Below, piece by piece: positions 1-14,098 of a stretch of DNA of 64,000 nt. The notes below the pieces were generated by a model, which was not told the DNA's origin, ran no database searches, and saw only the letters and a list, made by a program, of their open reading frames with translations. Positions within the stretch are counted from its first letter, which is position 1. Every line of letters starts with the position of its first letter. Made by a program: the position numbers and the translations under genes. Origin of the DNA: Calditrichia bacterium (GTDB lineage Bacteria; Calditrichota; Calditrichia; JAJRVZ01); the NCBI GenBank assembly GCA_963777955.1, contig CAVZSQ010000021.1, positions 1 to 64,000 of the forward strand, written 5' to 3'.

Positions 1-1249
1 GCCTTCCAAATCAGGTAGATTCGGAATCGTACTACTTTTTTGCTTTTTGGAACAGTTTCAGTAGGCTTAGAATATCTTTGGGAGCATTGTTATATGGTGT
101 AGCAGTCACAAGAATTACTTTTTTGCCGCGGCAGAGTTGCTGCCAATTTCTCATAGGTCACCGTTGTTTCTGTTCTGAAGCGGTGCGCTTCATCGATAAT
201 GATGTTGGTATATTTTTCAGTTCCTTTGTTGATCAGTTCGTCTAGTTTGCCAAGTGATTCAAAATCAGCAGGCACACGAAAATCAGAAAAGACATTTGGC
301 CAGGAACCTGGATTTGTCTTTTCTAGCAGAACCGGCGGCGCAATAACCAGAGTTCTGCCTTCAAGCTGTCCTGCCAGCATGGCTGAAATGTAAGTCTTTC
401 CCAATCCAACTACATCAGAAATGAAGACACCTCCATATTCCAATAATATTTTTTTTGCATTTAAAACTGCCTGTTCCTGATATTCGAGTTTTTTAAACTC
501 CGGTGGAAGATATTTTACAAACACCTCTTCGGTTTGGCTGAGTTCATCTTTGAAATATTCATAGAGAAATTTAAGGTAGAGTTGATATGGCGTTATATTT
601 TGGCTGAGCCAGGTTTTCTCTTGTATCGTCTGAACATATTTTTCGCTTACATCTACAGCGTCTTTCCATAATTCTTCAAACTTCTTGCGTGCAAACTCAT
701 AATCGCTGCGGTTTTTCAACTCCACATTAAACTCCAGATTATCAACAAGTCCGGCATGGGTGAAATTGCTGGAACCGGTGATTACTCGCCCGATATCTCG
801 GTCACCTTCACGAAAAGTCATAATATAAAGCTTGGCATGGATGTTTTGTGAGGGATAAGCTCTTATTTCTAATTTTTTATTTCTAATCCATTCAATAAAC
901 TTATTGACGCCTTCTTCAACTTTTCGAGTGTCTTCTGAATCAGCCAACTCTTGCTCTATCTGCTTTTCAACTTCTTCTTTTGTTTCGGCATGTGAAAATT
1001 CAATGACTTGCTGTTTGTGATTACCGTCTTTAGTAAGCAAATCGTATGTCTCTCTATTGGTGCTAATGCCAATCAAAATCCGGATTTTTACGTTTTTTCC
1101 AACGATTTATAGAGGGCATGGAATCCGCTGGTATAGAAATATCCTACCAGGCAGTCAAAAAAAGACGTATCTTTAATCAGGACTTCAAATCTGTCTTTCA
1201 GGCTTTGATTTTTTTCATTCGTTATAAATGATAAATCTGTGTTCATCAT
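1..1249 (-). CDS. PLD-nuclease domain / SNF2-family helicase fusion (partial, frameshifted; RM/defence-associated)
   Basis: HAKLY...GSSNFT PLD motif, DVVGLGKT Walker A and IIDEAH. Other frames give the N-terminus MNTDLSFITNEKNQSLKDRF..VGYFYTSGF and the continuation LCRGKKVILVTATPYNN. Confidence 0.85.
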
Positions 1250-1557
1250 GTTTCCCTCTCAGTCGTTCTTTGACAATTTGATAATTAATGGCGTCGTAAT
1301 GTCGGATATCTTAAAACCTATGAACTTGACTAACTGTCTTTTAAACTACAATAATAATAGTATAAGGTATAAGGATAATAAAATATAATTATGTAAACAT
1401 TAAAGATAAATAAGAATCGCAGCGACTTCCATGTTTTTAAGAAGTTTATCCGCTGCTGCCCAGAGTTTTTTTCAATGTTTTGATTGTTTTAACCTGATTT
1501 TTTACCATACTTTAATAAACTCCGTAAATTATATTCAGGGTCAATCTAATATTATCT

Positions 1558-2376
1558 CTAATAAATGTCTTCCATAACAGTAGGAATATATACCTGGAGA
1601 TTTTGTGCGAAACCTTCAATTCCAGGGAATAACGTCGCCCTATTTATGTTCATATCTTTTAGATATTTCATTAATCCTGATTTCAATTTATTTGATATTA
1701 TTAGTTTGGTTATATTTGAAACATCGTCACTTCCACATAGTGAAAAAAGATTATGCTCAAATGGCTTTTCGACATTCCCTGGACACATAAAAATTCCTTG
1801 TTGGAGAGTTAATCTTTCATTTAATCGAAAAGGATTTACAGTACATGCAAAATTTTTTGGATTATCTGTGTAGAATATCTTCTCAAATATTAATAAATCT
1901 TTTTCATGAGCTTCCGCAGAATATATTGATATTCTTCAGTTCCTTTACCAAATAATAATGCACACTGTTTTAAGCACCATTTAGGATTTATACACCAAAT
2001 TGCTGAATATTCCTCCTGATTCATATGTTCGATTGCAAAATATAACGCAATATAAATAGAATAAGTAAAATCAAGTAATCGTGTTGGGGCTCCAAAATGC
2101 TGCATTATTGATAACCATTCAAGGTAATCATATTCATTTCTTATATGGGACCGATATTGAAAATATCGACGACTCCAGAAATTCCCGAATAATCCATTTT
2201 TCATATTTTTTAATATTAGATAATGTTCCCTCAAGCCTTAGACACATTCTTTCTAAAGATGACTGGAGGTGCCATCTTAAATCTCGTTCCCTTCTATATC
2301 AGTAATCCTCACGAAATTTATCAATGTCACCCCAATTTTCGATTTCATGCCCTTTAAAGGTATCATTGTATATCAT
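1558..2376 (-). CDS. FRG domain-containing protein (frameshifted)
   Basis: WLSIMQHFGAPTRLLDFTYSIYIALYFA FRG signature, RLTLQQGIF motif and C-terminal LKDMNINRATLFPGIEG, spread across ORFs 1890-2234 and 1558-1788. GGAG RBS before the ATG at 2376. Confidence 0.85.
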
Positions 2377-2565
2377 TATGAGAACTCCAAATTTATTTTT
2401 CTTAAAATTATAAACTAAAATTACTGATACATTTAGTATTGGTATTATCGTAACACAATATACAAGTCTTTTGTACTTTCAATATTTATTCTAAAAGACT
2501 GTCAGATTTCTATTTAAAATTGTCTGTTTAATCATCGGTAATTCACTACCATCGTTTATAGTTTC

Positions 2566-3325
2566 TTAATTTATAACAAAACTATCAGTCAACATTTGGT
2601 TAAAACTATTAAACCATTTTCCTCTCCAATCAATTTCGATTATCAATGAGGAAGGTTGAACATTCTTCCCAACCGCATTAACTTTAATTTGATAACGATT
2701 TGGAGTAAGAGAAGTTCTTCCAGCATTAGGTCGTAAAAGAACTTCGAACCAAAATAAGTATTTATCTTTCTCTAATGGAGGCATAAATTTTTTCGGTGTG
2801 GTCAGGTTCAAGGATAAAACCGAGGTCACAGTGTCTATATACACCTGCTGGAATTGTGATTTCATATCGAAGACCCTTCCAATGACTCCATACAAATCTC
2901 AATGGAGGGAAATTATTATCTATAATAAATTGCCCATCTTCGAACCGCTTGACTTCCTCAAGGGTAACTTCGACGTCTTCGGCAGATTTCCACCCTATAT
3001 TTTCTATTCTCAGTCGAAAATAGTGGGCTTTCGCAATAAGTTTACCTGTTTTATGATCATGGAACTCAGTTGTGTGGCAGTCTCGTTTATCATTTGGTAT
3101 AAAATGTATAATGAGCCGTGGTTTGTTAATGAAATCGATCACTAAATCCCTAACTAATACAAAGATACTCGTAATAATAGCAGCCCCGGCAGTAATTAAC
3201 GAGACACCCACTGGTGGGCTTAATCTATTCCAGTTATATATGACTAATAGAACCACAGTACAATATGCAGTTAGAACTACAATTATAATGATTCCTATTT
3301 TAAGATAGTGTAAGATTTTTCTCAT
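2566..3325 (-). CDS. Hypothetical protein with two N-terminal TM helices and a beta-rich soluble domain (frameshift near 2790)
   Basis: ORFs 2762-3325 and 2566-2895 overlap and join. Hydrophobic N-terminus. Confidence 0.65.
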
Positions 3326-3454
3326 AATCTTCTAACACATTAGTATCAACTTAATCGATAATACTTCTACCTCTGGTCAGAATATCCTTTTATAATAAAT
3401 AAATATTTTGTGAGTTTTCATTTTTATTATTTTAAAATTACTCTTAGTAATTTT

Positions 3455-3559
3455 TCAGGTTTTTAACTTATGTTCTATTAAATTCCATTGGTCACGAAAC
3501 TCACTAATATCCCAGCCATTACAAGATTTAATTGGAGGTAAGAATTCTGTACTCGCCAT
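3455..3559 (-). CDS. Small hypothetical protein MASTEFLPPIKSCNGWDISEFRDQWNLIEHKLKT (possibly longer via frameshift)
   Basis: AAGGAG RBS immediately before the ATG. Below the ORF-track size cutoff. Confidence 0.35.
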   Translation of the reverse strand: MASTEFLPPIKSCNGWDISEFRDQWNLIEHKLKT

Positions 3560-3613
3560 ATTCTCCTTGTGTATTTGTCCTATTTTTGCTCATCTTAATT
3601 TTTTATACCTCAA

Positions 3614-4865
3614 TCAATCAAAAGAATATCCAATTCGAAAATCATGTCGCCTTAAATAGTTTTTAAAAAATAAATAGATAAATATTTCTTCATCTGGAGC
3701 ATTATTTTTCATCAAATATAAATGATACTTAGATAATAGATCGAACATAAGAAGTTCCCGAAATTATTATCAAAATAGAATAAACGATCTAATTCATAAG
3801 TATGTTGATCATGAAGAACCATAAAATATAGTACTAAGTTGGTTTGAAAATAATTACCATTAACTTCACCTTCACTACAAAGATGATTCAAAATCATATG
3901 GTGATAATCCAAGCATATATCTTTTAATGGGTTTAGAATATATTTTATTTCATTTTTATTAAACAAATATCCCTCTTGAAATGATTTTACTTCTATAAGT
4001 TTTTGCAATAACTTATTTAATGCTAAGAGATTATTATGAACTAATTTGTATTTGAATATATCTTTCTTCATACTGATTTTTTTAAGTCGAAAATAATTAT
4101 TAATTACAGGATTCATATTTACCTTTATTTCTTGATTAGAGTGATCTAATATCTCTGTAGTATTAATATCGTAGTAATACAAGGATTTTTCCCGTCATTT
4201 TTCCAATCCCGACCATCTGCCATCTAGTTGCCGATTGCACGCTCACCGTGTTCGTTAAATTTGTTTACTATTTTTCAATATCAGATTTCATTGCATCTAG
4301 TTCATAATCCATAGAATGGTCTGTGGGTTCATATAATGTTAAAAATGAAAGAGCAAGAAGTCGAATGAATCGCTTCTTCATTATAATCGATAGACTTTTG
4401 GTCTAAAAGTTTCATTATAATACTTTTATCTTTTGGTAAATAATCTGACAATGTTTTGGTAATAAGAAAAGTGAGTGCTTGACTTTTATCTTGATAATAT
4501 TTCTTCCAAAATAATTTTATATCTATATTGAAATCTTTATATTTAACGTTATAAAATGCAGATTTAAATCCTCTACTAAGGTTATCAATTAATACGAAAT
4601 ACTTTTTTAAATAAAGCAGTCTACCATGTTTTAGAATAAAAAGTCCATCAAATGTACGTAACAAGTGATATAAATATTTATTAGTAATAATTAAGTTTTG
4701 ATCTAAATATTTCTTCCGTTTTTGTACGTTTATAGTTTTATCATTAATCATCATATCAAAAAATTCCTGAATGCGATACCGATTTTCATCGAGTTTTAGC
4801 ATCAATGTATCATCAATATCTGTTTTTAAATTCTGATGTTTATCATAAAACTCTATATCAATCAT
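3614..4865 (-). CDS. Hypothetical protein (~400 aa when ORFs 4329-4865 and 3712-4182 are joined across frameshifts)
   Basis: Consecutive same-strand ORFs with protein-like sequence in between. GAGG RBS. No recognisable motif. Confidence 0.5.
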
Positions 4866-5129
4866 ATTTACCTCACTCAGTATTTCATATATGAAGAAAT
4901 TTGCGTTGATGTATTTATTATCAAATAAATCCTATGGTCGTAATGTATGATGAAAGGTTGTATCGGTACCTAATAATAAAATAATATATAAAATTATTTA
5001 ATCCAATGAATAAAACAATTCAACAAATGCAGTGTCAGCAGGTTTGGATGGCAAAGTAAAATATTGATTAACGTAAATACAATTATGTATATTTTATATA
5101 TAGTTTCTAATCTGAACTATGCATTTTAA

Positions 5130-5219
5130 TGACCAGACTTATCCAAAAAATGACCGGAAAATTACTTTTGTTGACCAAAGAATGACCAAATTAATACCGT
5201 TTTTGTCCAAATAATGACT
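5130..5219 (+). repeat. Helically phased array of TGACC-like pentamers
   Basis: TGACC 5130, TATCC 5140, TGACC 5151, TTACT 5162, TGACC 5172, TGACC 5183, ATACC 5194, TGTCC 5204, TGACT 5215. Spacing 10-11 bp. Confidence 0.7.
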
Positions 5220-5293
5220 TTTTTTATATACATCTACTCATTTTAACTCCTTATATTTATACGACTTAAAAGCCTTTTAACCACGCCAATTAA

Positions 5294-7799
5294 ATGATAA
5301 AAGATATTTATTTGAACCAATAAATAAATTGGAGACCTGTAATGACACGTGTTTAAGATTATCAAAACTATTAGATGTTATTCTTAGTCGTGAAATTGAA
5401 GAACTAATAGGCAGGGATAAAATTAATAACATATTAGATACAATATAATATTTCAGAAATACCTCAAAATTACATGCGGATATAAAATCGAGGTCTGTCA
5501 AATGATGAAAATATTAGAAAACCACTGGCGCAGGCTGATAGAGATCAGATTCGAAACTTATTCAATGATCAAATCCGAAAACAGTTAACCGATACTGAAA
5601 TAGATAATATTGGGAAAATAATACTATTAAATGATGACGATAATAATCTAAGACAGGCTTAGCTGATATTGAATATCGATCACATCGAAAAACTACTTGA
5701 AAATGATATAATTCATGATCTACTGGACAGTAATCTCGGAACTCGAAAATTATTTTATAACAATCATACAAAATTAAATACTGAATGGAACATGAATATG
5801 ATTTTAATTTCGAAAAATGATAATTAATAGTTATATAGATATAATTCGAGAACTATTAAATAATGATAAAATTCACAGAATCATTGACGAGTGATGAAAT
5901 ATCTAAGATTGAAGAATTATTAGATCAAAGTTATTTGGATAAAGGTCTACAACTAATCGATGATGATAATTATCAAGAACTCGATAAAGTAATCGAACAG
6001 CGAAACAAGATTCTTGATATGGTGAATCGTAAAGAAAAATTTTGGTACAATAAACTGTTGTATTTAGAACTTGCCAATAACGATTGTCTAAGTATGGCAA
6101 GGGATCTAAAAAGTAAATTCCCTTTTAAAGAAAGATATATTATTAGTGAAAACAAAATAATAACCTTGTTGTTGCGGGATGCTATATCATTTCCGTGCGA
6201 TGCTTACGTCAATTCAATTCATCAGAAGAAACTATTTAAAATTGGTGAACGTAGCGTTTCCATGGATTTTATAAATCATCTTGGAGAAAATTTTATATAT
6301 GACCAAATAAAGAATTCTAAAAAACTGGTTTTAGGTGACATCATCAAATTACAGCATCCGGAGAAGCTCAAAGCCCCATTTAGTTATCACATTATCAGCT
6401 ATGATTCTGATAATAAAATTGATTTGGATTCTCTGCTTAAAGGAATTAAGAATGTTCTCGATGATTTTCTTAATCAGGGATTAAAAAGAATTACTTTCAT
6501 TTCTAATGGACTTATTGATACCCTTGATGATCGAATTACCGCAGTGGAAGAAGAAATAATTCTTAAAATTGCTGAAACTGTAGTTAAATACCTAAGAGAA
6601 TTGGATAAAAGAAAATCTATTGAAGTATATTTTAATTTTACTACTGCAGATTCATTGTACGCATTCCACCGTGAATTTTATTGGTTTAGCAGTTTAAACC
6701 CAGACTATTTAAATCGCTTAAAACACGCGGAAAAATCGCAGAGTAAATTGATCCTAGTTATGAAAACTAAAAACCCAGCATATCATTGAAATTCTCAAAA
6801 AAATTAGTTTAGCAGCGGTCGATGATAGCCCAATTTTACTACTTGGTGATACAGGTGTCGGAAAATCATTATCTTGCAAAAAGAATCCATAAATATAGTA
6901 TGCGACCACCAGAGGCTCGATTTAGATCATTAAATTGCGCTCTGCTTAACTCCAATGATCAATATACAAGCCTTTTCGGCTGGGTCAGAGGGTGCATTCA
7001 CAGGGGCAATTGCAGATAGGGATGGACTGATCGAAACAGCAAAGGGTGGCACTCTTTTTCTGGATGAAATAGGATATATGGATATAAAAGCCCAACAAGC
7101 GTTACTCACATTTTTAGATACACGCCGAGTATAGATCGTCTTGGGACCGATCAAGATCACCAGAGTGCTGATGTACGACTAATATTCGGTACTAATCAGG
7201 ACTTGGAGGAGCAAGTACGATCAGGGGTAATGCAACCTGATTTTTATCAACGGATCGCGCAGCGGTATTTTCACAATTCCGCCCTTGAAGGATCGGAAAG
7301 AGGATATTGAAATATTTGCTCGGTGGAAGATAGAGAAATTGAACACGTAAAACTAATTTGAATATCGAAATAACAAAACAGGCTTTGGATCAGTTGAAAG
7401 AATATAACTGGCCGGGAAATATCAGGCAGTTAGAATAGTTACATTGAAAAGTCTTATATCATGACTGTATTCCCAATAGGCGGTTGACAATTTACCGGCA
7501 AAGGATAATAGAATCGCCACCAGGTGATGAACTTTATCATAACCAGGATAAATTCCAATTACTTGAAGAGGTTGCTGCAAGAATTACCTCCGGAAATGGA
7601 ATCCAGATGAATGGAAAATTCTTAGGTGATTTTATCAAACCGATCTTGGCAAAAATGTTATTTAGATAATAATAAGCAAAGGAACCCTACGGGAGTGCTG
7701 AGTAAATATTTGGGTATTACAGGAGGCACTGGTAAAGATTCCCATCTTGAAAAGAAGTATCAAACAGTATCCTAGAGCTTAAGAAAATTGCTTAATTAA
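5294..7799 (+). CDS. Macro-domain / sigma-54-dependent enhancer-binding protein (AAA+) fusion with C-terminal HTH-like segment; multiple frameshifts, start uncertain
   Basis: Macro-like [19 protein letters not shown]...LKAPFSYHI...LKRITFIS (~6157-6680). Walker A GDTGVGKS 6845-6868, GAFTGA 6991-7008, [49 protein letters not shown] near the C-terminus. Confidence 0.8.
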
Positions 7800-7927
7800 A
7801 CGTAAATTCTCGACGGACATCGAACCTTCAATCATAGATTTACACAAGTTCTCTATTTTTCCTTCACATTATATATATCCATAATTAACAGTTAGTTATA
7901 TAACTCGATTGCCCTCCTTAAATCGAT

Positions 7928-7943
7928 TGGCACGAGTGTTAGT
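7928..7943 (+). promoter_or_regulatory. Putative sigma-54 (-24/-12) promoter
   Basis: TGGCACG-AGTG-TTAGT: perfect -24 element and correct spacing, but -12 reads TTAG rather than TTGC. Lies between the bEBP gene and the next ATG (8019). Confidence 0.5.
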
Positions 7944-8018
7944 ATAATAGTCAGAAGCTCTGAATATACATATTCAAACTTAATTTACTAAAGTTAAACT
8001 TTTTTAAAGGATATCAGA

Positions 8019-8501
8019 ATGACGAATCAAAATTTGCAAGCGTTCGCAGACCAACAAGGCTTAAACGTAAGGACGCTCAAGCGGAAATTCGGCGATTGTA
8101 TTCATCGAGTTGGAAAACAGAGCTTTATTGACGTCGATAAGTTCAATAAAGTCTTTTGCAGAACGTAGCCGAAAAGGACGTCGCAGACTCCAAGAACTAT
8201 CCTGGAGTCGACCAGCATCGGTAGAATTAACGCAGTGCTACCGAGAGCCAATAAAAAACTTCTTAATCTTGGGGTTAAAAATCGAATCCTTGGAAACGGA
8301 GATGAAGAAAACCCCAGATGGAAGGATTAAGAAGATAGACGAGAATCGGCTATTACGTGTCAAACAGGATTACAAAGAACAAAGTAGTCTACTTAGGAAA
8401 ACTTATTAGTCGGTTAGACGTATCTTATCGATATGGAGCATAAAAAACTGCTTGCTCAGGAGCAATTGGGCAATGCAGAAGCTGCTCCCAGTCGATATAT
8501 A
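8019..8501 (+). CDS. Hypothetical HTH-like/coiled-coil protein, paralog A (frameshifted)
   Basis: AAAGGA RBS. Begins MTNQNLQAFADQQGLNVRTLKRKFGDCIHRVGKQSFIDVDKF and joins ORF 8110-8409. Confidence 0.6.
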
Positions 8502-8513
8502 ATATTTAACCAG

Positions 8514-8544
8514 AGGGCCGGTCAGGAGGGCCAGCCCTTTATTT
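8514..8544 (+). terminator. Intrinsic terminator-like hairpin after paralog A
   Basis: AGGGCCGGTC-AGGAG-GGCCAGCCCT followed by TTATTT. Confidence 0.6.
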
Positions 8545-8606
8545 AACGGAGAATTGTAATGAAAGTCTTAATTAAACGAAATACAATTTAATAAAAGGAA
8601 GGAAAT

Positions 8607-9083
8607 ATGGAAAAATTATGTACTAAATGTTTTATTGAACAAAATGGTATTGACTTAGGATCATTCAAGTTTCTCTTTGGTGATTCTGTTTATCGAAAGG
8701 TAACGAGATTATCATTGATTTCGATACTTTTGATAAGGCGATGGCACAACTCAATCGCGAAAGAGAAAAATATAAGAATGCGTTTCTGAAGTCCACCGAC
8801 ATCAAACGAATCCAAGAACTAATCCAAATAGTTCAGAAAGAACTCTTTGATCTGGAGTCAGAAATCCAGGATATTGGAATCGGAGTCAGGAAAAACCAAG
8901 GACCAAGAAAATAAAAATACCATAGAAAACCATTTATTTTATTACAGGAAGCACTATAAAGATCGGAAAATCTTTCTGGAAAAAATGATGGCCCGTATGG
9001 GTTTTTTAATCAAAACGGCACAAGAAAAATGGCTTGCGCTTAAACAGATGAGTCGGGCAGGAGCTCCCCCAAGGGAGAAATAA
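8607..9083 (+). CDS. Hypothetical HTH-like/coiled-coil protein, paralog B (frameshifted)
   Basis: AGGA RBS. ORFs 8607-8789 and 8847-9083 join via GNEIIIDFDTFDKAMAQLNREREKYKNAFLKSTDIKRI. Aligns with paralog A. Confidence 0.65.
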
Positions 9084-9092
9084 CGTTAGAAT

Positions 9093-9122
9093 AGGGCTGG
9101 TTGGAGGCCAGCCCTCTTTTTT
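9093..9122 (+). terminator. Intrinsic terminator-like hairpin after paralog B
   Basis: AGGGCTGGTT-GGA-GGCCAGCCCT followed by CTTTTTT. Confidence 0.65.
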
Positions 9123-9149
9123 GGTATAAGATTAAAGTGAACTGGATTT

Positions 9150-9395
9150 ATGAAAAGGTTAATCACACAGAAAGAAGCAGCAGAATATCTTGGGATATCA
9201 ACCAAGACATTATGGGTATGGACAGAAAAAGGGATCATCCCCCGTGTGGAGATCCCTGGCACAAAATCTAAATATGATCTTAACGACATTGAAAATCTTA
9301 TAAAGGAGAACAAAAACTATGCACTACAGGCTGTCGCAGAGACAGCAAAAAAAATTTTAAATAGTACACAACCAAAATTAGCAACGGGCACCTGA
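9150..9395 (+). CDS. Excisionase-like HTH_17 DNA-binding protein
   Basis: LITQKEAAEYLGISTKTLWVWTEKGIIP motif. Immediately upstream of the integrase. Confidence 0.85.
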   Translation: MKRLITQKEAAEYLGISTKTLWVWTEKGIIPRVEIPGTKSKYDLNDIENLIKENKNYALQAVAETAKKILNSTQPKLATGT

Positions 9396-9413
9396 TGAGG
9401 TGCCTTTTTATTT
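9387..9413 (+). terminator. Hairpin overlapping the xis stop codon, upstream of int
   Basis: GGCACCT-GATG-AGGTGCC followed by TTTTTATTT. Confidence 0.55.
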
Positions 9414-9427
9414 AAAGGGATTATACT

Positions 9428-10440
9428 ATGGCTTCACTCCGAAAAGAAGGTAATGTCTACTACCTGTATTTCAGGAAAGCCGGTAAACTGGTTAAACGTT
9501 CACTGCATACGGAATCAAGGCGGGATGCGGAAAAAATCAAAACCCAGATTGAATATGAATTAAACAATGGGAAATTTTTCCATTCTAATTATTCACCACA
9601 GGCTAAGATGAAACTTTCCTCCCTTCTGGATGAGGTCATAGATTATGCGAAGATAAATAAATCTCCCCGTACTGTCGAGCGGGAGAAACTGGTGCATAAT
9701 AATTTTAGAGCATTCTGCGGTGAGATATACATCTCGGATATCGACAGCAGGTTGATTGAACGCTACAAAAAATACCTGAGCCTGGATAGGAAATTTGCCA
9801 ACAGCGGTGTCAATATTGAGTTGCGGCACCTGTCCACTGCATTCTCCTTGGCCGTAAAGTATGAGTATCTGGGGAAGAATCCTTTTAAAGAGGTCAAGAA
9901 GTTACCCGTGCCTAAGACCAAGCCCCGCTTCTTTACCAGGGATCAGGCGGAACTTCTGCTCAGGGAATCTTATGACACTCCTTTATTCCATTACGTCATG
10001 GTCTCCCTGTTCAGTGGGGCCAGGATCAGCGAGGTTGCGCAGTTAAAATGGTCAAATGTCGACCTTCGAAATAATATGATTAAAATCGAAGGAAAAGGAT
10101 CGAAGGAGCGCAGTGTGCCGATTCCACAAAATCTGGCTGATTATCTTAATTCACTTAAAAAGAAAAATCAGTATGTGGCTCCTGGGACCAGGGATATTCA
10201 TAAGACAACAGCGCGATTCAGACACCTGGCTGACAAACTCGGCCTGACGGAATTCAAGTTTCATGATCTTCGCCATACATACGCCAGCTGGTTGGTCCAG
10301 AACAATGTAAACATCAAGGTGATACAGGAATTGTTGGGCCACCAGGATATTAAAACAACTCTGATCTATACGCACTCTCTAAAGATGATCGTTTTAATGC
10401 AGTAAAACGGCTGGAAGAATTTTACACAGGTGCGAAATAA
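9428..10440 (+). CDS. Tyrosine recombinase/phage integrase (frameshift near 10380; natural stop probably 10440)
   Basis: Catalytic motifs GARISE, KGSKER, HDLRHTYAS and LLGHQDIKTTLIY. N-terminal arm-binding-like segment. Confidence 0.93.
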
Positions 10441-10464
10441 CGTTACCTATTTGTTACTACCCAC

Positions 10465-10499
10465 AAAAAAAGGACTTACGAGATTTCCCGTAAGTCCTT
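10465..10499 (-). terminator. Intrinsic terminator downstream of tRNA-Phe
   Basis: AAGGACTTACG-N8-CGTAAGTCCTT stem with an A-run that gives a U-tract on the minus strand. Confidence 0.75.
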
Positions 10500-10511
10500 G
10501 TTTATCAACGG

Positions 10512-10584
<73 letters not shown>

Positions 10585-10639
10585 ATATTTCGATTAAATA
10601 TAAAGTTCTGAGAGGTATTCTGCAAATTGAAATTAAAGA

Positions 10640-10920
10640 ATAAAGGGACAGAGACCAGAGGACAAAGAAAAGGCACTGAAGTCGGAGCGATAGCGTAGAC
10701 CTGCCGTAAGGCAGGCACTCCGGCACTTAGGCACTAAGTTAAAGACTCCCGCTAACATACGATCACGTATGTCATTTTTTCAGTGTATATATACCGATGA
10801 ACTTTAAACTGCCCCTCCTCGTCCGCGAAATGCCGGACAGGGAGGGGGGCGGGGTGGGTTATACAGAGATCTCAGGTACTCAATGGGCAGGTCGCCGAAG
10901 GCCTGTCTACTCAGGTACCT
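10640..10920. repeat. Cluster of intergenic short tandem repeats (GGCACTTA/ACTCAGGT) and REP-like palindromes
   Basis: GGCACTCCGGCACTTAGGCACTAAG, CCCCTCC...GGAGGGG, CCTGCCGTAAGGCAGG. Confidence 0.6.
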
Positions 10921-10963
10921 ATGACAATTATTAAGGGGACCAATTACAATTGCGCTTTTACTT

Positions 10964-12162
10964 TTATTTCAAAACTGTAAACCTCCTCACCTGCACAAAA
11001 TCAGATCTTGTAACTGGTAAAAATATATTCCGCTGGCCAGATTGGAAGCATCAAAATGTATGGTATGAATCCCGCTTCCTGTTCCCCTTCCACCAGCGTG
11101 GCCACCTTTTGCCCTTGCAGGTTATAAATTGCCAATGTAACAAAGTCAGTTTTGGTTATTGAGATATTGGAATTTGGTGCTTGAATTGAAAGGATTCGGA
11201 TAATTCTGCTCCAATACCGGCGTGTCCGGCTGTAGACCCTGCCGGTAACCTGCGGCTATACGCCAGAAGCCTGCCCATCCCACCCGGCCAGCCGCGCCCA
11301 TAACCACCAGGCGGCATAGGCCTTTAAATTTCCGTTCAACGGCTGGGTATGGTCGGGACTGCAATCGTACCAGTCCACCCCCTCGCTGTGCGCAGCCTGC
11401 CACTCCAGCGGCCCAGTTGCCGCCGCCGTCATAATCACAGGCGTCGTTGACATGCTTGTCGCCGAAATAGTTGCCGTCCGGATCATAACATTCTATATCG
11501 TAAAAGTCATACAATATCTTATTGTTGTCTATACAGTACTGCCGGATCTGCTGATTGTTGATATGCAAAGTACCGTCCAGACCGGAACCGTCGGAATGAC
11601 CGGTCATGTAAACGAATTTCACCCCGGAATAATCCAACTCCAGTTGATTCATCCGGTCCAGATAATATCCGGATACTGCTTCCGCGGGATAGCCGGACAA
11701 CTGCCCGCACCAGGACCAGATGATCACGTTCATCTCGGGATGATTGCTGCCGCGACCCAGCAGATCGGGTACCCCTAAATAAGCCCGCGTCTCGGCAACC
11801 CAGGCGGTATCGTAACCGGCATCATGGTCCAGATCGCCGCTACCATACTGATCCCCTTCAAATAAATGCAGCGCACCGTCGGTTCCTTCATGATTCCAGG
11901 CAAATAAATTATCGGTATAACCGCCCTTGCTGTTCATGAAACCGACCAGACCGTTCATGCCGGCAATAAGCTGATTGCCATGGGAGGTATGACCGTAACC
12001 GATATGCAATTGCGCTTTGGCTGTTTCCACTGCACTTATTGGAATATTGTAAATGTTGGTACAGGTGTGGTCGACGATGATCGCCTGAGAGAAAAGTGAA
12101 TTGCAGTAAAATACCAAATAATCCAAATTCCAAATCCCAAATACATGAACATTCTTTTTCAT
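10964..12162 (-). CDS. Secreted protein with C-terminal Por/FlgD-type sorting domain (frameshifted)
   Basis: IGYGHTSHGNQL...WSWCGQ...DIECYDPDG conserved-looking core. C-terminal LEQNYPNPFN..AIYNLQGQKVATLV..ASGIYFYQL. Confidence 0.7.
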
Positions 12163-12272
12163 GATACACCCCTCCTAAGTCGGTATTTATTATATAAATC
12201 GGCTGGATTCAGACTACAGGTAAGATATTTATTATTTATTTTTAAAACATTGATCTGAAGCACATGAAAATA

Positions 12273-12353
12273 AAAGGCTGAAGGAAAAAGGATAAAGGAT
12301 AAAGAAAATCTTTATCTTTGGCCCTTTGCCTTTGACCTTTGGCCTTTAAACCT
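12273..12353. repeat. Inverted pair of 7-mer tandem arrays (AAGGATA / CTTTGGC)
   Basis: AAGGAAA AAGGATA AAGGATA ... CTTTGGC CCTTTGC CTTTGAC CTTTGGC. Confidence 0.55.
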
Positions 12354-12357
12354 GAAA

Positions 12358-14098
12358 TTAATTGATAGGTTTTAACGTGAACGCAACGTCCTGGCCTACA
12401 TATTGACCCCGGCCGTCCTCAATCTTCAGTACGGGGATTTTAAATTCCACTGATCCGTTCTTCACAGTCACCTTCTGCTCATGGAAGAACCGGCCACCCC
12501 AGGTGTGATATAACTTCAAATTATAATCACCATCAACCAGTGACGAAACATTTACTTTCGCACCTGATACATCGGAGTCAGGATTCACCACCCAGCCAAA
12601 AATAAGTTGATCGCTCTTCATGGCAAAGGCGTCCCCTTCCGATGCTTTAACTTCAACGACAGCAACATTTGTCAGTTTGGAAAATGGTATGGTAGCTGCA
12701 AAACGATTTATGCTGGTCAATTGATGGGTGACCAGGTTGTCATTCAGATAATCGGAATAGGCCCACCAGAACGGCGTCATGGCCATACCGGTAGCCAGTC
12801 CCGCCCACAGGGCATTATGATAAAGGGCCAGATACCCCGGCATGCCGGGTTCATAAAAGGTATGATCCCAGCCGGTCTCACCCATGATTACCGGTTTCTG
12901 ATACCCTTTCCACAGTTTGCGGATCTCGGTGACATAATTCATATAACTCAATTTCAAAGGATGTACATCGCCGGGATCGATCTTCCCGTCCTGCAGTATG
13001 GGAAATCCCTGCCCTTCATAGATCTCCCGCGCGGCCAGATCGAAAATCTTATACCCTTCATACCAGAATTCCTGACTCCCGCCGCTGCGGGTGCCGGTGG
13101 TTAGATGACCATACGGATCGTTGGCTTTAAAATAATCATGAACCTTTCGCGCCCACCTGGCAGCGTCCATGGTATCACCATGCGCCCAGCCGTCGGTGCC
13201 GTTGACTTCATCGACGATAAACCAGATCCCCAGCGCCCGGCTATAAGCCCAGCGGGCAATGATATAGCGGTACAATTTTTCCTGGTACGTCCAGGATTCC
13301 TTACTTTTAAAGAAATCTTTGGCCGCACAGACAAACTGGTAGGGATTGGTATACCAGCGCTTGTTGAATCCCGGCCAGACCGTCTCCGACAGATAGGAAT
13401 GGAACCAGATATTCAGACTTAAAATAAGATCCTTCTCTTCACACCATTTTACCAGATTATCAACCCGCTCGCAGACGCCCTGATCATAACGCCCGACACC
13501 GCTGCCGATAGTTTCCAGGGGCATCATCACCGCACTGATAAAGTTGACTCCAACCTCTTTCAATTGATCCAGATCCTCACGCGGATTTTCCCCCCGGTCA
13601 CCCCAGCCCGGAGGAATCAAAGCACTGTTGTACCACATGCCCACTCCGTAAAAAGGGGTGCCGTCGGTATGTTCCAGGTAACGGTGATTGGCCGTCAGCA
13701 ATTCGCAGCGGACCATGATATTTGGAAGGAATTACCTGGAAGGTATCGGCCTGACTGCTTGTACTGCCGGTCTTATCCTTTACTTTTAGAAAATAAGTCC
13801 ACGAACCGGTTTCATCGGGCGAAAACCGAAGCATCCATAATGAATGTGCATAGTAATAGAAAGCAGGGATATTCCATATTTTTCCTGAGGGCGCTGTATA
13901 AGTGACCATAATATCGATCTCTTCCGGATCGAAGGGATTGTTATAAACCGTATTCAAATCAAATACCGCTTCGAATTTTTCGTATTGCCCGACGGTATCT
14001 TTCATCACACGGATGTGTTGTACTGCAGGATTGCTGTATGTAATTGTGGTGCTTGTGAATAAAAAGATTATCAAAAATAACGAAAATGTTTTTTTCAT
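12358..14098 (-). CDS. DUF5060-like N-terminal domain + clan GH-A (GH5-like) glycoside hydrolase (frameshift near 13700)
   Basis: Signal peptide MKKTFSLFLIIF, YNNPFDPEEI..RFSPDETGSW, HTDGTPFYGVG, and putative catalytic IVDEVN and VIMGETG. Confidence 0.75.

Follow-up and report, generated by a model that had tools for sequence, protein, structure and literature searches.

In RtcR, the CARF-AAA+-helix-turn-helix (HTH) activator of the rtcBA RNA-repair operon, an N-terminal CARF domain keeps the AAA+ ring inactive until a signal comes. Macro domains can also receive signals. In published work on type II Thoeris, the Macro domain of the effector ThsA binds His-ADPR, ADP-ribose (ADPR), or IAD. Here we describe the remains of a gene at positions 5863-7775 (forward strand) of a 64,000-nucleotide stretch of DNA (the window; contig CAVZSQ010000021.1 of Calditrichia bacterium assembly GCA_963777955.1, positions 1 to 64,000). 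A first-pass annotation, made from the sequence alone, had proposed an RtcR-like sigma-54 activator with a Macro domain as its sensor at this site. We lean slightly towards the reading that the gene is a decayed single-chain Macro sigma-54 activator, and that its intact relatives bind an ADP-ribose-like ligand and activate a promoter just downstream of their own genes.

Comparison with RtcR shows the same layout, consisting of an N-terminal alpha/beta nucleotide-type sensor, an AAA+ domain, and a short DNA-binding tail. In place of the CARF part (RtcR model positions 1 to ~170) stand a helical lead of 85 residues and a Macro domain, and no RtcB or RtcA family was found among the neighbors scanned. 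ThsA, a transmembrane (TM)-Macro protein, uses a non-hydrolytic Macro domain to receive a small-molecule signal in a defence setting, as is proposed for the family. Its output is a membrane effector, whereas that of the present family is a transcription motor. No TM-domain family was found in the window ORF (open reading frame) or in intact relatives, in which the Macro domain is instead fused to AAA+, and no ThsB-type TIR partner was found among the neighbor ORFs scanned at eight loci. The likeness is drawn from published descriptions of ThsA. RteB of CTnDOT resembles the family as a regulator on an integrative element that starts a cascade toward an excision operon. RteB, an NtrC/sigma-54-type regulator, works in a two-component pair as the response regulator of the kinase RteA, whereas the family has a Macro domain as its input and no conserved kinase partner in the vicinity.

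Macro fold and fused architecture

The N-terminal half of the ancestral gene is preserved as an intact 308-aa ORF (5863..6789, + strand), comprising a helical region (residues 1-85), a divergent Macro domain (residues 85-280; 6115..6702, + strand), and linker helices. Relatives align to this ORF from residue 25-31 through 307, and its stop codon is a TGA arising from the first frame change. Bases 5294-5862, previously assigned to the gene, do not belong to it, since relatives align only from about 5899-5950 onward; they consist of separate broken frames with no Pfam family match. Directly upstream of the Macro ORF, 5281-5824 (+ strand) contains three stop-free segments in two frames, with an in-frame TAG (5660-5662) between two of them. 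It has no Pfam match, and looks like a further broken gene.

Pfam gave no Macro hit for the 308-aa ORF, for which the PF01661 gathering score (22 bits) was not reached, and assignment of the domain therefore required relatives, a profile, and a fold model. The best direct Pfam and NCBIfam matches were only Hexokinase_2 (E 0.23) and g3p_cytidyltrns (E 0.031), neither of them useful. A fold predicted from the single sequence was equally useless (pLDDT 42). With a 40-sequence alignment, AlphaFold2 reached a pLDDT of 82 for the whole model and of more than 90 across residues 85-300. Foldseek matched the model to the macrodomains of macroH2A1.1, PARP9, PARP14, and Oceanobacillus (E 1e-10 to 1e-8, target template-modelling scores 0.75-0.83). 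VIA-align returned Z scores of 20.6 to 16.8 over 155-188 residues, all within model residues 85-280, with root-mean-square deviations of 2.1-3.0 over 170-182 residues for the matches at Z ~20. SPX-domain matches that topped the Foldseek results were crystallisation fusions with macroH2A1.1, and a real SPX match was ruled out.

Homology was also detected at the level of profiles. A profile of the N-terminal part only, built from nine sequences, retrieved macroH2A1.1 chains from 177,635 PDB sequences at E 4.2e-6. Applied to 401 genomes, it also retrieved ~170-aa stand-alone proteins, and all five of those tested belonged to PF01661 (E 1e-36 to 1e-42). Alignment of the profile with these five proteins by hhalign gave a probability of 97.3% (E 2e-11, 165 columns). 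Within the family, 19 of 40 members reached E<=1 with the Pfam Macro model (best 3.7e-4), all below threshold, and the intact relative P0001 scored 14.8 bits against the cutoff of 22. ESM Atlas Macro clusters at 0.88-0.89 served as a lead only. The Macro-like fold proposed earlier for 5863-6789 is thus borne out by Foldseek, VIA, the profile against PDB, hhalign, and the recovery of PF01661 proteins.

The putative binding pocket is altered. Profile alignment to true Macro proteins confirmed that the GGG and GIYG loops are absent, as the first-pass annotation had noted. According to the hhalign columns, S-x-S stands in place of loop 1, GGG(V), and loop 2, G-[IV]-[FY]-G-[FY]-P, gives way to variable sequence that follows the conserved Gly216. 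D113, present in the window ORF, is matched with the Asp in DAIVNAAN, which is the adenine-contact position, and is kept in 37 of the 40 sequences of the family alignment. H165 and S174 are invariant (40/40), and H176 is found in 38/40. The domain thus resembles the PF01661 domains of macroH2A1.1, PARP9, PARP14, and Oceanobacillus in its fold (Z ~20), its profile-level homology, and its adenine-position Asp, but differs in its low identity (~13-21%), in lacking both loops, and in having the family-specific invariant His and Ser instead. The family has retained the fold and the adenine position, has lost the usual diphosphate cradle, and has conserved a polar set of its own.

An exhaustive search of representatives yielded 45 at E<=1e-3, of which 39 were at E<=1e-10; a word-based search for longer proteins found none. 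Fusion of Macro and AAA+ in one chain, as proposed earlier, was found in the family at large: 34 of 40 aligned members carry PF00158, and most are ~620-640 aa long. The other six are short sequences and may be fragments. P0001 scores 162 bits for PF00158, and the intact homologs are fusions rather than separate genes with a real stop at the position of 6789.

The AAA+ module is closest to RtcR/CARF-AAA-HTH, with the CARF part unmatched, in agreement with its earlier description as RtcR-like. NCBIfam ranked RtcR first for all three AAA+ pieces of the window that were tested. For three of three intact members, the best NCBIfam model was RtcR NF038308 (195-213 bits, model positions ~172-438 only). 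The best PADLOC model was RtcR_PspF2--CARF_AAA_HTH (207-224 bits), again with no alignment to CARF. None of these proteins qualifies as an RtcR equivalog, defined by 650 bits with an N-terminal CARF. The DNA-binding ends of the NtrC, MobR, and NtrX models match the C-terminal tails of intact relatives. We regard the Macro fold and the fused activator architecture as almost certain; the family joins a new input domain to a sigma-54 activator.

The family is rare. It occurs in 2 of 86 genomes of the phylum of the window, including that of the window itself, and 4 strong matches were found in 401 genomes of the class of genome G101. No family copy was found in the same-genus genome G001 with the 308-aa ORF as the query. 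A search with a smaller alignment gave one genome locus and three metagenome loci, and none in viral contigs. Members carry the organism labels candidate division KSB1, Ignavibacteriota, and Calditrichaeota, and public names that are generic only ("sigma-54-dependent transcriptional regulator", "NtrC family response regulator"). Among six genome copies, those of the window and of genome G303 are multiply broken, and that of G101 has one TGA in the Macro part. The G303 copy (locus L039, G303:C19) is a second, independently decayed copy with stops and frame changes inside the Macro part too, and has an integrase 3 kb downstream. In keeping with the first-pass annotation, no account of the architecture was found in a search of openly available full-text literature. 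The matching passages of PMC7159879 contain no Macro/sigma-54 activator fusion.

The broken activator half

The motif positions given in the first-pass annotation for the AAA+ module, Walker A at 6845 and GAFTGA at 6991, were right. The motifs are Walker A (GDTGVGKS, 6845-6868), GAFTGA (6991-7008), Walker B (LFLDEIG, 7054-7074), and WPGNIRQL (7409-7432). The sigma-54 interaction (AAA+) domain (6764..7347, + strand) is in pieces over three frames. Pfam detected Sigma54_activat (PF00158) in four pieces, at 6764-6889 (19.2 bits), 6813-7016 (17.0 bits), 6934-7131 (59.3 bits), and 7068-7307 (29.4 bits), of which the latter two pass the cutoff of 20.2 bits. The AAA+ lid and linker follow at 7343..7666 (+ strand), with AAA_lid_14 at 7343-7435 (35.1 bits). 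The C-terminal tail (7626..7775, + strand) lies in yet another frame, and matches the LGI..G..S.L..Y tail of relatives. Relative residues 593-611 correspond to 7704-7760, and intact relatives align as far as 7760.

The Macro ORF had been described as running into the bacterial enhancer-binding protein (bEBP) module through single-base frameshifts. Frame changes are indeed present, but the damage also includes two in-frame stops, TAG at 7436-7438 and TGA at 7445-7447. Relative to intact relatives there are seven frame changes, in the order +1, +1, +1, -1, +1, +1, +1, located near 6780-6790, 6868-6875, 6985-6995, 7120-7135, 7270-7280, 7343-7350, and 7640-7665. A single ORF runs through the AAA+ module in the relatives at loci L018, L020, L021, and L038, and not in the window. 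The host genome encodes 17 other strong PF00158 activators, none of them with a stop, and the integrase ~2 kb from the damaged gene is also intact. An alternative genetic code was rejected, because the broken half contains TAG as well as TGA and the other activators read through under table 11.

The activator gene of the window is very probably a pseudogene. Barring assembly errors at the lesions, its activator half is destroyed and the protein cannot work as a sigma-54 activator in this genome. What is still produced would be no more than a stand-alone Macro protein.

Promoter-like sites and carrier islands

Seven loci have sequence downstream of the activator: the window, L017, L018, L020, L021, L038, and L039. 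In the window, L018, L021, and L038, reading of the intergenic DNA revealed GGCACG a short way past the end of the activator gene. In the window, a -24/-12 site, TGGCACG-N4-TTAGT (7928..7943, + strand), has a perfect -24 and a degenerate -12 element, matches 10 of 12 positions of the sigma-54 consensus TGGCACG-N4-TTGCW, and lies 75 nt upstream of an ORF at 8019. The host encodes sigma-54 (rpoN at G000:C19).

The consensus was scanned on both strands of the whole 64-kb window and of seven loci, with GG obligatory and at least 10 of 12 defined positions matching. A first scan that required GC at -12 returned the L017 site only, and this rule was then dropped. The scan gave 19 matches in 376,702 positions. 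Five of the 19 (window, L017, L018, L038, and L039) were on the coding strand in the intervals from activator stop to next ORF, which total 1,871 nt and in which 0.094 were expected (Poisson p 6e-8). A -24/-12 site thus follows the stop codon in five of seven loci.

Other features were seen in the same intergenic DNA. In L017 and L038, terminator-like hairpins separate the stop codon from the -24/-12 site. A 12-nt string, GGGCACTTTCCG, was found by eye after the activator stop in L017 (11914), L020 (11872), and L039 (reverse strand, ~2494); it may serve as an operator or enhancer, or belong to a terminator. Locus-specific palindromes or repeats, also noted by eye and without statistics, occur between the stop and the -24/-12 site in L021 (11895-11945), L038 (11985-12005 and 12043-12061), and L018 (11905-11925), and are candidate binding sites for the activator.

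The gene lies in a region of low GC content, the first 10.5 kb of the window having 27-40% GC vs 43-49% beyond. Overlapping short ORFs at 8019..9083 (+ strand), probably decayed and without a family match, occupy the slot that holds 2-5 small genes of unknown function in related loci, genes that show no shared TM pattern. They are followed by an excisionase-like HTH_17 gene (9150..9395, + strand; Pfam E 5.3e-9) and an intact tyrosine integrase with Phage_integrase and SAM-like domains (9428..10405, + strand; Pfam E 6e-32), which is 29% identical to the L020 integrase. A tRNA-Phe gene at 10510..10584 (- strand) marks the edge of the low-GC island, and is the likely integration site. A tyrosine integrase 2.5-3.2 kb downstream of the activator on the same strand was found in five of the seven loci, and an HTH_17 gene in four; locus L021 ends just past its HTH_17 gene. 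The L017 (14491-15324) and L020 (14097-15125) integrases are 93% identical, while the Macro activators of these loci share only ~52% identity in the compared part, and the genes in between are not the same. These unequal identities suggest exchange of modules between related islands.

Upstream of the activator, the cargo differs in every locus and is largely of defence type. It includes a type IIG enzyme and a PycC-like cyclase in L017, PDC-M41B and a PD-T4-6-like kinase in L018, NucC-like, LmuA-like, and PDC-S46 proteins in L020, and a type ISP enzyme and IetA in L021. In L040, a Macro activator cut by the contig end is preceded (1198-12759) by three consecutive systems: GmrSD, type I restriction-modification, and an Avs2-type STAND NTPase of 1,423 aa. 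Mu Gam-like and DUF932 genes are divergent from the activator in L038 and L040, and L038 also has RadC. In the window, the cargo is reduced to fragments. At the contig start, 90-1076 (- strand) encodes a truncated PLD-nuclease domain and the start of a helicase (PLDc_2, ResIII; PbeA/ZacB/DrmC-like in PADLOC), and 1890-2234 (- strand) encodes a 114-aa fragment of an FRG-domain protein, which is the PADLOC candidate PDC-S15. The family sits in tRNA-integrated islands with defence cargo, and the gene of the window is a pseudogene inside a decaying island beside tRNA-Phe.

Proposed mechanism, alternatives, and significance

By analogy with CARF in RtcR, whose removal leaves a constitutively active protein, the Macro domain would gate the ATPase and ring assembly of intact family members. 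Ligand binding would free the AAA+ ring, which would open the sigma-54 promoter just downstream of the activator gene. This promoter would drive the small genes that vary between loci, with the island's excisionase and integrase probably included. We put the chance that the downstream operon is the target of the activator at about even. An ADP-ribose-type ligand is suggested more tentatively by the fold, the Asp at the adenine position, and the Thoeris precedent.

The state of the gene in the window could be explained in other ways than by decay. Six of the seven frame changes are +1, a bias that could also stem from consensus error at a thinly covered contig end: the window begins at contig base 1, the gene lies 6-8 kb from the contig end, and the assembly is apparently metagenome-derived (27 contigs, 91.8% complete). 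If these changes were assembly errors, the organism would have an intact 630-aa gene, but we consider this quite unlikely. Two of the lesions are in-frame stop codons rather than indels, the junctions are mostly outside homopolymers, and homopolymer runs of at least 4 are fewer in the damaged half (19) than in the undamaged N-terminal half (27), all of which favors true decay. The stop-free state of the 17 other activators and of the neighboring integrase, the truncated appearance of other island genes, and the G303 copy, with several stops, and the G101 copy, with one TGA, which show that the gene decays elsewhere, also argue against assembly error. The Macro-only ORF might, after loss of the activator, have been retained by selection, for example as a ligand binder or sponge. 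All nine lesions fall within the last 52% of the gene (chance 0.0028 under an even spread), the window keeps 20 of 22 strongly conserved positions read by eye (214-215 and 253 depart), and short relatives with the N-terminal part only (228-317 aa) exist in the database. Selection of this kind nevertheless seems improbable to us. The Macro part is not generally spared, being itself damaged in the G303 and G101 copies; the short relatives may have been cut off by the ends of their contigs; and the lesions number only nine, and mutational events sometimes cluster.

For the function of intact relatives, several observations weigh against the reading that we prefer, in which an ADP-ribose-like ligand leads to activation of the downstream promoter. 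The threshold and region of the promoter scan were chosen once the motif had been seen, the GC of the -12 element is missing in four of the five sites, and the sites of L020 and L021 are weaker, matching 8 and 9 positions of 12 in our own count. L018 has no integrase within 8 kb downstream, and the 2-5 genes between activator and integrase could be given no function from PHROG or Pfam, nor did blastp or phmmer reveal any resemblance among them from one locus to the next. Among the neighbor ORFs scanned at the eight loci, no member of the TIR, SIR2, or ADP-ribosyltransferase families turned up, and binding of ADP-ribose may have been lost or changed, since the loops for the diphosphate and distal ribose are replaced. 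The activator might instead control the upstream defence cargo, or host genes elsewhere. RtcR-type regulators act on neighboring operons, and the gene is always beside defence-type genes (Avs2, type I/IIG/ISP restriction, GmrSD, PycC-like cyclase, NucC-like, LmuA-like, IetA, and PDC candidates). We hold this to be unlikely, because the upstream genes differ in every locus and sigma-54 consensus sites are enriched only after the stop codon. It is less unlikely, though still doubtful, that the domain no longer binds ADP-ribose-type ligands, and is a degenerate scaffold through which a different ligand, or a partner protein, controls the AAA+ ring. Such a scaffold would fit the absence of both canonical phosphate and ribose loops and the sub-threshold Pfam Macro scores of every member; the closest solved folds also include macroH2A1.2 and macroH2A2, which are not known to bind such ligands. 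The adenine Asp, H165, S174, H176, S131, and Q148 are, however, conserved at only 21-34% identity to the window ORF, and conservation of polar residues across such divergent sequences is consistent with a ligand pocket. Published work describes Macro domains whose pockets have changed and which sense modified ADPR signals.

On the preferred reading, a wider role can be imagined for the intact relatives, and we offer it as a speculation with little likelihood attached. Defence islands may carry their own Macro-sensor switch, which would link a NAD-derived or ADP-ribose-type alarm, raised by host immunity or by phage enzymes, through a promoter to transcription of fast-changing small genes together with the excisionase and integrase; the sensor half left in the window would possibly be a free ligand binder. 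If this were true, the island would arm itself or quit a doomed cell. For the window, the practical result is that the gene can be annotated as a pseudogene of an island that is itself decaying. It is the input domain that defines a sigma-54 activator, and RtcR provides the precedent of a nucleotide-signal domain, CARF, driving one; a Macro domain is now found in that position. A Macro-gated transcription factor in integrative defence islands would tie ADP-ribose-derived immune signals to gene expression, and perhaps to island mobility.

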